NCBI GenBank assembly: GCA_045658315.1
Contig: JAZOUV010000023.1
Coordinates: forward strand, 15,065 to 79,064
From: Eubacteriales bacterium
Lineage (GTDB): Bacteria > Bacillota > Clostridia > Oscillospirales > CAG-272
Direction of reading: 5' to 3'
Length of the DNA: 64,000 nucleotides
In this document: in pieces, positions 10,629 to 62,491 of the stretch
Position numbering within the stretch: the stretch's first letter is position 1
How the letters are laid out: each line of letters opens with the position of its first letter
The notes under the pieces: generated by a model
Databases searched by the model: none
What the model saw: only the letters and a program-made list of their open reading frames with translations
What the model was told of the DNA's origin: nothing
Made by a program: the position numbers and the translations under genes

Positions 10629-10794
10629 AAAACACCTCCACAAAAAATAAAAAATGCACGAAATCAGCAACAACTCCGTACAAAAATGCACACACAGAGA
10701 TATAATTTAATCCCTATGTCATTTTATTAACCTCGTACAAGTCTTATGCTCTACGGGTGAGAACGGAGCGTTCTGCTTCTTTTTTTACCTTGTG

Positions 10795-19071: not shown

Positions 19072-19306
19072 TAAGAAAAATAATGCAGTGATCGGGAAAA
19101 TGCCGTCGGATATAGGTTATTAAAAGGGTTCAGAGAGTGCATTGCTTAGGTGTAAGATGCATACCCGCCGAGACGGAAGTGCGCCCGTGAGCAGGTGTTA
19201 ATCACACCCGTTTTGTCAGCGATAACAGACACGCAAGTTATAAACCGAAGTGGAACCGCGGAATGTGCCGCCTTTGAGTAATATCAAAGGCGGATTTTTG
19301 TTTTTT
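19072..19306 (+). promoter_or_regulatory. T-box riboswitch leader, cysteine-specific (UGC)
   Basis: AGAGAG bulge (~19131) and a distal-loop-like GGUGUAA. The T-box sequence AAGUGGAACCGCG is at 19248-19260. The terminator GCCGCCTTTGA-gtaata-TCAAAGGCGG plus T-run is at 19267-19306. UGC triplets occur at 19158 and at 19180 (context GAAG-UGC-G). cysE and cysS lie downstream. Confidence 0.8.
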
Positions 19307-32221: not shown

Positions 32222-32600
32222 TTCCCCCTTTGGAATCCTCCTTGGTTTGTGCGTAGTTATAATATATTACTTAAAGGTGAAGTGCTATTTATGGATAGTA
32301 TTTTTAAAAATACTATCTAAGGCATTCCCCTTTGGAATCCTCCTTGGTTTGTACGTAGTTATTACATATTACTTAAAGGTGAAGTGCTATTTATAGATAG
32401 TATTTTTTAAAATACTATCTAAGGCATTCCCCTTTGGAATCCTCCTTGGTATGTGCATAGTTATAATGACAACATAGAGGTGAAATTCTATTTATAGATA
32501 GGTATTTTTTTAAAATACTATCTAAGATATTCCCTCTTTGGAATCCTCCTTGGTATGTGATTAGTTATGATAATTTCTTAGAGGTAAAATGCATGTATTA
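32222..32600. repeat. tandem repeat, about 3.7 units of ~102 bp
   Basis: Units start at 32222, 32325, 32427 and 32530. The TTTGGAATCCTCCTTGG block recurs at 32229, 32331, 32433 and 32537 (periods 102, 102, 104). R1/R2 are ~93% identical, and R3 and R4 are progressively diverged. AT palindromes lie at 32294-32317, 32395-32420 and 32496-32523. Confidence 0.9.
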
Positions 32601-32623
32601 AGCAAGAAAATATGTAAAAACTA

Positions 32624-32652
32624 TTGACGGAAAAGTATATAAAGTATATAAT
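32624..32652 (+). promoter_or_regulatory. promoter of the potABCD operon (long leader)
   Basis: TTGACG (32624-32629), a 17-nt spacer, then TATAAT (32647-32652). Predicts a ~385-nt 5' UTR before potA. Confidence 0.65.
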
Positions 32653-33042
32653 ATATTATTGTACACGAAAAATAAAATATATAGACGATTTTTGCATCTG
32701 TGCCAACATTTTTGTCAAAAGCAAAGGTTTGACAAAATCTATCATCACCTTTTTTCTACTAACTTACGGGCACGTGTAGATTATATCCGTAAAAAAGGCA
32801 AGATGTACATATCAGGGCAGTTCTTAACAAGAGCCGTTTTTAAGGTTAGTCTGACTTTAAATTGAGAAACCGAACGCTGCAGCCGTGTTTAAGTTTGCGG
32901 AAGTTTTATTAAATAACCGCAAGGCGTATATACGGTTGTAACAAACTCTTTGCGGGGGCGTTGGGTTAGCCCGATATGGGGTTCGCGCAGAGCTTAACTA
33001 TGAAGCTGTACGCGGTCTTTACCGCAAAGGGGGATGCAAAAA

Positions 33043-38147: not shown

Positions 38148-38238
38148 GGAGAAGTACTCAAGTTGGTGAAGAGGCGCCCCTGCTAAGGGTGTAGGTCGGG
38201 TAACCGGCGCGAGAGTTCAAATCTCTCCTTCTCCGCCA
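38148..38238 (+). tRNA. tRNA-Ser (anticodon GCU), CCA encoded
   Basis: Manual cloverleaf. Acceptor GGAGAAG/CTTCTCC, anticodon stem CGCCC/GGGTG with loop CU-GCU-AA, long variable arm (type II), T arm GAGAG-TTCAAAT-CTCTC, discriminator G, then CCA. Confidence 0.9.
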
Positions 38239-38280: not shown

Positions 38281-38467
38281 GGGTATGAAAAAGATTTGAA
38301 CTTGAGCGTCGGGAACCGGCAAGAGAGGGAGTGTTTCTCCGCGCCGCCTGTGGCGGAAGAAGCGGAGGAATACGAGTGGCAGCCGTTCGCTGAACAAGAG
38401 CAAATTCTTTTTGCGAATTGAGAAGCGGTAACGGCAACAGTGCGAAGGCGATGAAATCGCCAAGACA

Positions 38468-38487
38468 AAATCTCTCCTTCTCCGCCA
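38468..38487 (+). repeat. 20-nt exact duplicate of the tRNA-Ser 3' end (att-like direct repeat)
   Basis: AAATCTCTCCTTCTCCGCCA at 38219-38238 and again at 38468-38487. Similarity continues into the following A-rich/ACGAC sequence. Confidence 0.9.
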
Positions 38488-38488
38488 G

Positions 38489-38522
38489 AAAACGACAAGT
38501 TTCGACAGAAACTTGTCGTTTT
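38489..38522 (+). terminator. hairpin/terminator following the duplicated tRNA 3' end
   Basis: AAAACGACAAGTTTC-gaca-GAAACTTGTCGTTTT, a 15-bp stem with a short T-run. Confidence 0.55.
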
Positions 38523-38697
38523 CAGTTATATTCGCCTTGCGGCGAGTTATATTGCTTCGCAGTTATATTTGCTTCGCAAGTGTTATTGCCCTTCGGGCAG
38601 TTAGGGGCGAATATTATATCACTGAAACCGCAGGTTTCAATATCACATTTTGCATAGCAAAATATATCACTCCGACGAAGTCGGAATATCACCAAAA
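38523..38697. repeat. multi-hairpin array element, copy A
   Basis: Left half: GTTATAT-type spacers (38525, 38546, 38562; degenerate at 38580 and 38600), each followed by a short hairpin. Right half: ATATCAC spacers at 38616, 38640, 38664 and 38686 (period 24, 24, 22), each followed by a 6-7-bp hairpin with a 3-nt loop. Long-range complement: 38528-38536 with 38606-38614. Confidence 0.85.
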
Positions 38698-38770
38698 ACT
38701 TACTGTTTATGTGAGAATTCGAATTCATACGCAAAAACGCCAGAAAATATCTTTTTTGTAGCCTATAGGC

Positions 38771-38805
38771 AAAAAGAAAAGTCGCGTCAGCGACTTTTTC
38801 TTTTT
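38771..38805 (-). terminator. terminator after the isocitrate dehydrogenase gene (bidirectional shape)
   Basis: AAAAAGAAAAGTCGC-gtca-GCGACTTTTTCTTTTT. Confidence 0.7.
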
Positions 38806-62146: not shown

Positions 62147-62191
62147 GATAAAAAAAGGAGCTTTTGCGAGACATCTCATAAGGAAGTCTCG

Positions 62192-62412
62192 CAGTTTTAT
62201 TCGCCAAAGGCGAGTTGTATTGCTTCGCAGTTATATTATGCTTACGCATGGTGGTATTGTCCTACGGACAGTTTTTTGGGCGAATAAAATAACACTACGA
62301 CCAAAGGGAGTAATAATACTTTCACAGAGTGAAAATAGCACCCTGTGCGTTAGCACAGAATACAACTTGTTTTTTCTTTTTTGTTGTAAAAGGTTTTGTG
62401 TATCACCAAAAA
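62192..62412. repeat. multi-hairpin array element, copy B
   Basis: Collinear with copy A, with a near-identical core GGCGAGTTGTATTGCTTCGCAGTTATATT (62209-62237). Hairpins at 62201-62213, 62221-62229, 62238-62249, 62258-62270, 62320-62334 and 62343-62358. Long-range complement: 62195-62205 with 62279-62289. Ends with TATCACCAAAAA, as copy A does. Confidence 0.85.
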
Positions 62413-62461
62413 AGCTTTTGCACTTACAAATGCGATGCTGGTTCTAACTGATAAGCATAAG

Positions 62462-62491
62462 AAAAACCTCGATGAATTTCATCGAGGTTTT
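62462..62491 (-). terminator. rho-independent terminator after gdhA
   Basis: On the minus strand, AAAACCTCGATGA-aat-TCATCGAGGTTTT followed by TCTTATGC. Confidence 0.8.

Follow-up and report, generated by a model that had tools for sequence, protein, structure and literature searches.

Copies of an opposed heptamer-hairpin repeat containing the Gut-1 motif in a clostridial genome, and association of the repeat with PF05635 genes

Two intergenic elements, copies A and B, were analysed in a 64,000-nt stretch of the genome of an Eubacteriales bacterium (GenBank assembly GCA_045658315.1, contig JAZOUV010000023.1, positions 15,065 to 79,064; the whole stretch is referred to as the window). Both are gene-less copies of a repeat that is dispersed in gut Clostridia of the Oscillospirales type, and half of the repeat unit is catalogued in Rfam as Gut-1 (RF01706). 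The full unit opens with a terminator-like hairpin, after which four to five GTKATAT heptamers alternate with short hairpins in a left array that is closed by a helix of approximately 11 bp; the AT-rich centre comes next, followed by four ATATCAC heptamers in a right array of inverted orientation. In its complete form, the element is situated directly before a gene of the PF05635 family, and the encoded protein is therefore likely the missing partner of the Gut-1 motif. As judged from the sequences compared here, we regard it as fairly probable that the repeat is a dispersed and presumably mobile cassette whose arrays serve as ligand of a pentameric protein, with copies A and B as gene-less copies of it.

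The repeat unit and its relation to Gut-1

Copy A comprises 175 bp (38523-38697) and contains no protein gene. A preliminary description of this DNA had interpreted it as two head-to-head arrays with one grammar, i.e., a heptamer alternating with a variable hairpin, and all coordinates and hairpins given there agree with the sequence. The features of copy A are the following.

38467-38488 (+): 22-nt duplicate of the 3' end of tRNA-Ser(GCT); the repeat unit starts immediately after the CCA of this duplicate
38488-38523 (+): hp0, a terminator-like hairpin with a 16-bp stem, then the U-rich CAGTTATATT
38525-38606 (+): left array of heptamers and four hairpins; Gut-1 match at 38523-38591 (+), 46.2 bits
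38525, 38546, 38562 (GTTATAT), 38580 (GTGTTAT), and 38600 (GTTAGGG) (+): heptamers of the left array
38532-38545, 38553-38561, 38569-38579, and 38587-38599 (+): hairpins of the left array
38528-38536 (+): 5' arm ATATTCGCC of the long-range helix P1; its alternative partner is the local GGCGA of hairpin 1
38606-38614 (+): 3' arm GGCGAATAT of P1, inside the AT-rich centre
38616-38692 (-): right array, reading GTGATAT plus hairpin on the minus strand; Gut-1 match at 38611-38694 (-), 43.1 bits
38616, 38640, 38664, and 38686: ATATCAC sites of the right array, period 22-24 bp
38623-38639, 38647-38663, and 38671-38685: hairpins of the right array
38693-38779 (+): tail, conserved with locus L154 only, without recognisable remnant of a protein gene

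A mechanical scan for at least three GTKNTAT heptamers with perfect hairpins in between returned 38525-38586 (+), 38616-38692 (-), and 62194-62236 (+) only in the 64 kb, and the same rule gave no match in 20 shuffled windows. ATATCAC occurs at 15 sites in the window compared to 7.5 expected, with four of these inside copy A, for which folding z-scores of -4.9 (plus strand) and -5.6 (minus strand) were obtained. The 29-nt core of copy A, proposed as a query by the preliminary description, recurs once in the window at 62209-62237 (0 expected), and this occurrence belongs to copy B (62166-62450). The relative with a conserved tail, L154 (loci are designated by L and a number), is 84% identical to copy A across 38484-38779, and the same hp0 and element are located there directly behind the CCA of a different tRNA.

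In a permissive Rfam scan, the two halves of copy A match Gut-1 RNA on opposite strands with 46.2 and 43.1 bits. The gathering score of RF01706, 50 bits, is not reached by the window copies (46.2, 43.1, and 35.8 bits); their relatives attain 50-89 bits, e.g., 66.8 bits for L264, which is of the GTGATAT type. The arrangement that characterizes RF01706, at least three short covarying hairpins with a conserved heptamer in between, is present. Gut-1 was originally described by a consensus of four heptamers (GUGAAAU or GUGAUAU) in alternation with three variable-stem hairpins, and was considered probably an RNA ("RNA: Y") and not cis-regulatory, based on 43 examples that derived from human-gut metagenomes only (Weinberg et al. 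2010, PMC2864571). The Gut-1 seeds BAAZ01000095.1 and BAAZ01025322.1 carry GUGAUAU spacers, a UAUUCGCC/GGCGAAUAU helix, and an AUAUCAC array. Taken with their flanks, which were retained in the deposited alignment, both seeds display the complete layout of copy A including the terminator hairpin, and one of them is located just behind a tRNA. Due to the matches of both halves and the shared architecture of the seeds, the former view that the element belongs to no described family had to be given up. The two opposed arrays represent, on the other hand, a real extension of a known half-motif, as the seeds show the full layout. The Rfam model is restricted to the left three hairpins on one strand and comes without function or context, to which the closing helix, the inverted right array, the placement at gene ends and tRNAs, the PF05635 link, and the loop and wobble statistics are added here.

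Beyond the window, family members were searched for by a genome pattern scan that required both P1 arms. This search yielded at least 119 genome loci, for which positions relative to gene ends were recorded; family counts given below rest on the matches listed. Nearly all loci are from metagenome-assembled genomes (MAGs) of Clostridia (Acutalibacteraceae, Oscillospiraceae, Ruminococcus, and "Eubacteriales") from human and ruminant guts. The element is thus a member of a dispersed intergenic repeat family, as had been supposed, leaving aside the comparison of its layout with repetitive extragenic palindromes (REPs) and bacterial interspersed mosaic elements (BIMEs). A common plan was observed in 122 out of 122 instances, namely a variable GC-rich hp0, AGTTNTATTCGCC, four hairpins with GTKNTAT in between, GTTT..GGCGAATANA, three repetitions of ATATCAC plus hairpin, and a final ATATCAC. 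Inspection by eye revealed a hairpin at the hp0 position in all 122 copies. Left and right arrays contain 39 and 86 distinct hairpin stems, respectively, which agrees with the earlier statement that stems are not conserved between modules. Stem conservation of the REP type is therefore absent, and the conserved motif is the heptamer, as opposed to the GTAG-type 5' motif of REPs. A nested insertion (tttcttttggaaatatctcgcc..ggcgaggtttt..aaaagaaa) that enlarges right hairpin 2 was noted in L151, L202, L203, L205, L210, and L211; it holds a heptamer-like ATATCTC and a small hairpin of its own.

RNAalifold predicted 40 pairs on 82 aligned copies, 24 of them with double compensatory changes, and one-sided (wobble-type) changes are almost absent. 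The 9-bp complement that had been suggested to close the left half, here termed P1, covaries in these 82 family members. At the P1 position left free by the search pattern, UA, AU, and CG were found in 36, 28, and 17 copies, respectively, with one exception. Among 38 independent elements selected by their protein (see below), P1 is present and significant in 33, with a median of 11 exact bp and 26 distinct sequences, e.g., AAATTCGTTCCT/AGGAACGAATTT and AAATAAATCC/GGATTTATTT. The 5' arm of P1 has two possible partners, the 3' arm of hairpin 1 or the central segment.

Association with a PF05635 gene

Clustering of the ORFs (open reading frames) from the at least 119 loci (up to 8 kb) revealed a single recurrent abutting neighbour, an ORF of approximately 118 aa directly right of the element. 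Among the matches listed, this PF05635 gene is located directly behind the element in 10 of 119 loci (9 intact, 1 fragment), and the other flanking genes are unrelated. The protein matches PF05635 with E=1.6e-29 as well as TIGR02436 ("four helix bundle protein"), and its closest PDB entry is 2RLD (E=1e-30, five chains). The PF05635/TIGR02436 family includes the protein encoded in intervening sequences (IVSs) of 23S rRNA (S23p) is homologous to Avd, the accessory protein of diversity-generating retroelements (DGRs), and forms a toroidal homopentamer. A defence-system match of the protein was not obtained with PADLOC.

The association is also observed in the reverse direction. Of 80 metagenome loci that were selected by protein similarity alone, 60 provide at least 250 nt of upstream sequence, and in 48 of these a crude automatic test detected two opposed arrays of one heptamer upstream of the gene; most of the remaining loci show arrays by eye. 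Canonical Gut-1 matches of 50-89 bits occur just upstream of the PF05635 gene, often with a second match on the other strand. Cluster 1 proteins (n=38; 54-100% identity to the query, linked at at least 66%) are accompanied by ATAWCAC and cluster 2 proteins (n=32; 46-59% identity) by ATTTCAC or ATTTCAT, which equals the Rfam consensus, while ATATCAT, ATATCGC, ACTTCAC, and ATTTAGC were found with small protein clusters. The heptamer is uniform within an element and varies between protein clusters. At ten positions of the protein, each of the two main types has a different fixed residue. More telling than this correlation is that all eight to nine heptamers of an element change in concert. Runaway arrays directly upstream of the protein gene were noted in L259 (1-358, at least 16 left-type modules) and L270 (118-447, at least 14 ATATCAT modules, all with the same orientation).

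The gene has an outward sigma-70-type promoter, the -35 box of which directly adjoins the last right heptamer (e.g., ATAACAC-TTGAAA-17 nt-TATAAT) and which is followed by GAGGTGAT and the ATG. Together with the 22-24 bp period of the right array of copy A, this is the kind of arrangement expected of a double-stranded operator or iteron, by which the protein or a host factor would control the adjacent promoter via the heptamers, solo copies being decayed relics or decoys. Such an operator is quite improbable, since heptamer spacing ranges from 16 to more than 30 bp, the compensatory hairpin changes are not needed by a double-stranded model, and the loops are strand-specific (see below).

Full cassettes are conserved from hp0, at approximately -250 from the ATG, to 0-70 nt beyond the stop codon. 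Behind the ORF, a 3' motif of the type GGGTWTGGGC..GCCC..GCATTTGTA..TACAAATGC.. recurs in many loci and may be a left-type array, short and degenerate, with the ORF enclosed between it and the right array. A two-hairpin 3' motif after the PF05635 stop codon, ending in ..CTGGCGATAAA or ..GATGCTGGTTCT, was located in L243 (4349-4410), L249, L251, L253, L254, L257, and L180, and at 62390-62450 of the window. In case of L246 and L256, a second left-type array is situated behind the protein gene, resulting in the order left-right-ORF-left.

Copy B lies between a convergent plus-strand ORF and the glutamate dehydrogenase gene gdh, and copy A between the convergent tRNA-Ser (with its remnant) and the isocitrate dehydrogenase gene icd; the convergent intergenic location originally noted hence applies to both. 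Copy B is composed as follows.

62166-62192 (+): hp0 (GCGAGAC...GTCTCGC); the same hairpin occurs in L187, L209, L210, L231, and L243
62194-62277 (+): left array with GTTTTAT, GTTGTAT, GTTATAT, GTGGTAT, GTTTTTT, and four hairpins; Gut-1 match at 62192-62262, 35.8 bits
62195-62205 and 62279-62289 (+): P1, TTTTATTCGCC pairing with GGCGAATAAAA
62289-62366 (-): right array, degenerate, with ATAACAC, ATAATAC, ATAGCAC, ATACAAC, and three hairpins
62390-62450 (+): 3' motif of the full cassette, homologous to the L243 segment behind the PF05635 stop codon; the ORF is absent
62463-62491 (both directions): two-way terminator-like hairpin that separates copy B from gdh

Copy B was compared to the full cassette of L243 by two local alignments, one on each side of the ORF. 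Positions 62164-62341, which cover hp0 and most of the arrays, align with 136/176 identities, and 62390-62484 align to L243 4349-4440 with 72/90, starting from the first base past the ORF stop. Since cassette sequence is retained before as well as after the place of the absent ORF, copy B represents a derivative of a PF05635 cassette that lacks the gene.

Distant members of the protein family are accompanied by heptamers as well. A tblastn search of plasmids returned 31 records with PF05635 relatives of 37-51% identity. All 13 distant PF05635 genes that were inspected (L322-L334), which derive from Cyanobacteria, Bacteroidota, Spirochaetota, and Clostridia, have plain tandem heptamers on both sides, arranged as inverted arrays, e.g., (TAATTCG)4-ORF-(CGAATTA)4 with exact inverted repeats of 31-36 nt, (AATTCAA)4/(TTGAATT)4-5, (TTAGTGA)16, and (CTGGTCA)13. 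Several of these genes are wedged into operons, between hsdS and hsdR, drmD and MmeI, or adaptor and permease genes of the RND (resistance-nodulation-division) type. On viral contigs, two relatives of the protein were found, near-identical and both beside a tRNA, so that the element is not typical of phages; a loose three-heptamer pattern run over viral contigs gave, among the matches listed, none obviously related to the element. In the literature searched for Gut-1 follow-ups, for PF05635 with repeats, and for short tandemly repeated repetitive (STRR) sequences with four-helix-bundle proteins, the coverage of which is incomplete, no prior link was found.

Placement, strand preference, and spread

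The nearest left ORF is oriented as the element in 76 of 106 cases, with a median of 50 nt from the stop codon to AGTT, a gap into which hp0 just fits. For 14 of 115 copies, the end of a tRNA gene on the element's strand was located at a distance of 35-43 nt upstream, and in case of the gene-linked copies a tRNA or transfer-messenger RNA (tmRNA), with many identities represented, ends at most 330 nt before the protein start, just ahead of the element, in 15 of 60. In L269 (3428-4354), an element of the GCTAAAT/ATTTAGC type and its PF05635 gene are situated directly behind the tmRNA gene. Hp0 with the downstream U-rich AGUUUUAUU scores as an intrinsic terminator, and terminator-like hairpins are far more frequent than expected from shuffled sequences. 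A strong outward promoter on the plus strand was detected in 12 of 98 solo copies only.

This position just behind stop codons and tRNA ends, co-oriented with the upstream unit, the excess of terminator-like hairpins, and the location of both window copies between convergent genes would also be in agreement with a host-domesticated gene-end module, i.e., a two-way terminator, insulator, or 3'-end stabiliser comparable to REP/BIME of E. coli and without a dedicated protein. The right neighbour, however, shows no preferred orientation (49 plus versus 40 minus), and the concerted heptamer changes as well as the protein linkage would stay unexplained, for which reason we hold such a module to be very improbable.

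Whole halves mostly fold better on the GTGATAT-reading strand (left, 101 of 102; right, 94 of 102). This advantage is explained by the invariant flanks UAU...GUG, which can add U-G, A-U, and U-G pairs on that strand only. The variable stems themselves comprise 2680 Watson-Crick pairs, 11 G-T, 17 A-C, and 18 other mismatches. Wobble is thus neither tolerated nor strand-biased, which is unusual for a structured RNA made from one strand. Counting G-U against A-C as a marker of the transcribed strand was abandoned, as wobble is virtually unused and no strand is named by it.

A clear polarity was observed for the loops. Among 281 triloops read on the ATATCAC strand, 193 have the form GNA, with C-GNA-G in 187 cases, and among 196 tetraloops 128 have the form GNNA, with GNRA in 80 cases; on the other strand, neither type occurs. 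Stems of only 3 bp occur in 116 modules. In the second hairpin, TGCTTCGCA, which is nearly universal, the opposite strand includes GCGAAGC. Both this sequence and C-GNA-G are described as "extraordinarily stable" DNA mini-hairpins (PMC13037366, PMC3201870). According to the loop polarity, hairpins are optimised on the bottom strand in the left array and on the top strand in the right array, opposite to the Rfam orientation. Judged by sequence, these stem and loop features would suit a folded single-stranded DNA no less than an RNA.

The same data bear on the classification in Rfam, by which the element would be a free-standing structured small RNA (sRNA) transcribed in the GUGAUAU sense, the second array being a second, convergently oriented sRNA gene. 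The RF01706 entry with the verdict of its authors, the strong covariation, and the extra pairs confined to the GUGAUAU strand are consistent with an sRNA. The lack of wobble tolerance and of strand bias, the 3-bp stems, the restriction of G..A loops to the opposite strand, and a terminator-like hairpin that abuts the 5' end and leaves no room for a promoter make it unlikely. In copy A, a near-consensus promoter-like site (TTGAAA-16-TGnTATAAT) runs on the minus strand from 38640 to 38613, within right hairpin 1 and a heptamer, and is aimed into the left array. It was considered as promoter of an sRNA terminated by hp0 and dropped, since its presence in 11 of 98 members does not make it a family feature.

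Units with 97-100% identity and unalignable flanks were found in MAGs of different species for the pairs L128/L192 and L187/L231. The boundaries of these units are the base of hp0 on one side and a position just past a -10-like TATAAT on the other; other pairs share the portion from AGTT onward only. Judging from extra copies inside the loci examined, a genome may contain some tens of them. The likeness to multi-site transposon ends that had been remarked upon was not sustained by the ends of these units, at which neither terminal inverted repeats nor target-site duplications were found.

REP stems are sequence-conserved within a genome, and genes of the REP-associated tyrosine transposases (RAYTs) are flanked by REPs. 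The repeat described here resembles REP/BIME in its dispersed intergenic clusters of hairpins, which point either way and each have a short conserved motif next to them, but differs in stems that vary from module to module, and no Y1 transposase was found nearby. Among the neighbours of the at least 119 copies, neither transposases nor integrases nor RAYT/Y1 genes are enriched, and the PF05635 gene is the sole enriched neighbour, so that the REP/BIME-RAYT lead of the preliminary description was not sustained. A REP/BIME- or MITE-like repeat (miniature inverted-repeat transposable element) could still be moved in trans by an unlinked RAYT/Y1, another HUH, or a DDE enzyme, with the four-helix-bundle gene as a frequent passenger. 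The near-identical dispersed units, the ORF-less derivatives, the short motif beside each hairpin, and the signs of mini-hairpins of the single-stranded DNA type speak for this possible but unlikely alternative. They are opposed by the missing enrichment of a transposase-like gene, the missing terminal inverted repeats and target-site duplications, and the unconserved stems, and a passenger role would leave unexplained the separate heptamer arrays that accompany even protein relatives of as little as 37% identity.

The surroundings of both copies in the window are ordinary chromosomal genes (ABC transporter, short-chain dehydrogenase, tRNA-Ser, isocitrate dehydrogenase, aconitase, and glutamate dehydrogenase). 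The tRNA-Ser(GCT) gene itself is located at 38148-38238 and has its own terminator, and the 22-nt duplicate of its 3' end follows approximately 230 bp further on. This duplicate looks like the scar of an element formerly integrated in the tRNA gene. Apart from the repeat, four tandem copies of a unit of about 102 nt were observed at 32225-32634, upstream of ABC-transporter genes starting at 33034, and sub-threshold Rfam matches were obtained to a T-box leader (19079-19278, plus strand, 56 versus 93 bits) and an L20 leader (10644-10784, minus strand, 34 versus 59 bits).

Candidate mechanism and comparison to known systems

None of the four alternatives explains both the concerted heptamer changes and the linkage to the protein. 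Under the favoured reading of a dispersed cassette, the heptamer arrays would be the cognate ligand of the PF05635 pentamer. They would act single-stranded and folded, either as single-stranded DNA or as RNA, with each mini-hairpin drawing successive heptamers together. In this manner folded Gut-1-type arrays may imitate the contiguous heptamers of the plain arrays beside distant family members, and with its four to five heptamers each array would be of a size appropriate to a single pentamer. Spread of the cassette would be that of a small selfish unit with its own terminator and promoter, by which, as we propose, insertion behind genes may become nearly neutral. Gene-less copies would be MITE-like derivatives, copies A and B being relict or trans-acting arrays with any partner gene outside the window.

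Several observations weigh against this reading. At the ends of the L128/L192 and L187/L231 units neither target-site duplication nor terminal inverted repeat was found, and no empty site was recovered in the comparison of near-identical units, so that mobility is deduced from distribution only. Copy A has two opposed arrays of one heptamer type; an adjacent PF05635/TIGR02436 gene is missing, and no PF05635 gene was found anywhere in the 64 kb, whereby the partner of copies A and B is only predicted to reside elsewhere in the genome. Due to the location of the promoter downstream of the arrays, these are outside the mRNA of the gene itself. The correlation of heptamer and protein is suggestive only, since linked DNA and protein co-diverge by descent. 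Most arrays show four clear heptamers rather than five. Loop chemistry argues for the strand opposite to that of Rfam, and the absence of G-U would speak against RNA, although the Avd precedent is an RNA. As the scan pattern demanded both P1 arms, the at least 119 loci are biased for P1, a bias that the protein-selected set corrects; the genome sample is pattern-selected, and gene calls are simple ORF calls. Binding, transcription, and mobility are predicted only.

The nearest counterpart by protein family is the 23S rRNA IVS. In PMC4990558, where Ralph and McClelland 1993 is cited, the ORF-bearing type is portrayed as a 28-bp terminal stem that encloses the S23p ORF and as long suspected to be mobile. 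Besides the same protein family, IVSs share with the present units a compact, non-autonomous-looking form, inverted terminal repeats, hairpins, and a sporadic, apparently horizontal spread (PMC4990558), and the bracketed distant PF05635 genes have the design of ORF-bearing IVSs. In contrast, IVSs are located inside 23S helices and are excised by RNase III, whereas the present units follow terminators of tRNA and protein genes and have both arrays upstream of the ORF. An IVS location in helix 9, 25, or 45 does not apply, as the window contains no rRNA and copies are situated between protein or tRNA genes.

With respect to DGRs, Avd was shown to be a pentamer that grips an RNA stem-loop with all five protomers, flipped-out bases being held in the crevices between protomers, and stem-loops of this type, often GNRA-capped, were predicted in 207 of 278 DGRs (10.1101/2023.10.23.563531). 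The target DNA of DGRs requires a hairpin with a stem that is free to vary and a strand-specific GRNA loop (PMC3240598). Gut-1-type hairpins follow the same rule of a variable stem and a strand-specific loop of the G..A type, and the protein is homologous to Avd, but many short hairpins plus heptamers are present here compared to one hairpin of 7-11 bp in DGRs. No cluster resembling a reverse transcriptase was among the enriched neighbours of the at least 119 loci and no pair of template and variable repeats was noticed, although no dedicated search was made.

Tandem repeats with a heptameric unit are over-represented in bacteria without explanation, according to a study of 2015 that does not mention this protein (PMC4692102); cyanobacterial STRR sequences and G-rich heptamers of Xanthomonas and Nostoc are examples. 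The likeness consists in the 7-nt period and in the inverted tandem heptamers that bracket distant PF05635 genes; these over-represented repeats differ as plain repeats without hairpin spacers, and the literature searched yielded no publication that connects them to PF05635.

To our knowledge, Gut-1 has been listed in Rfam since 2010 without context, host, or function, and no role outside DGRs is known to us for PF05635/S23p proteins, structures of which have been solved since 2006. The analysis ties Gut-1, these proteins, and tandem heptamers into one claim, namely that arrays of a given heptamer are recognised by the toroidal pentamer to which this heptamer belongs. It is tempting to speculate further, and we do so tentatively, that orphan pentamers of the PF05635/S23p/Avd type are sequence-specific readers of 7-nt arrays, that protein and arrays together form widespread unrecognised selfish cassettes without a canonical recombinase, that the same class stands behind 23S rRNA IVSs and part of the excess of heptamer repeats, and that Gut-1 is a folded single-strand, possibly DNA, binding array. 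If the claim is false, the element stays an ordinary member of a catalogued orphan repeat. If it is true, a supposed sRNA would have to be re-filed as a protein-binding array, possibly of DNA, Avd-like proteins would gain a general rule of nucleic-acid recognition with relevance to DGR targeting, and a hint would be given at how ORF-bearing intervening sequences of rRNA spread.

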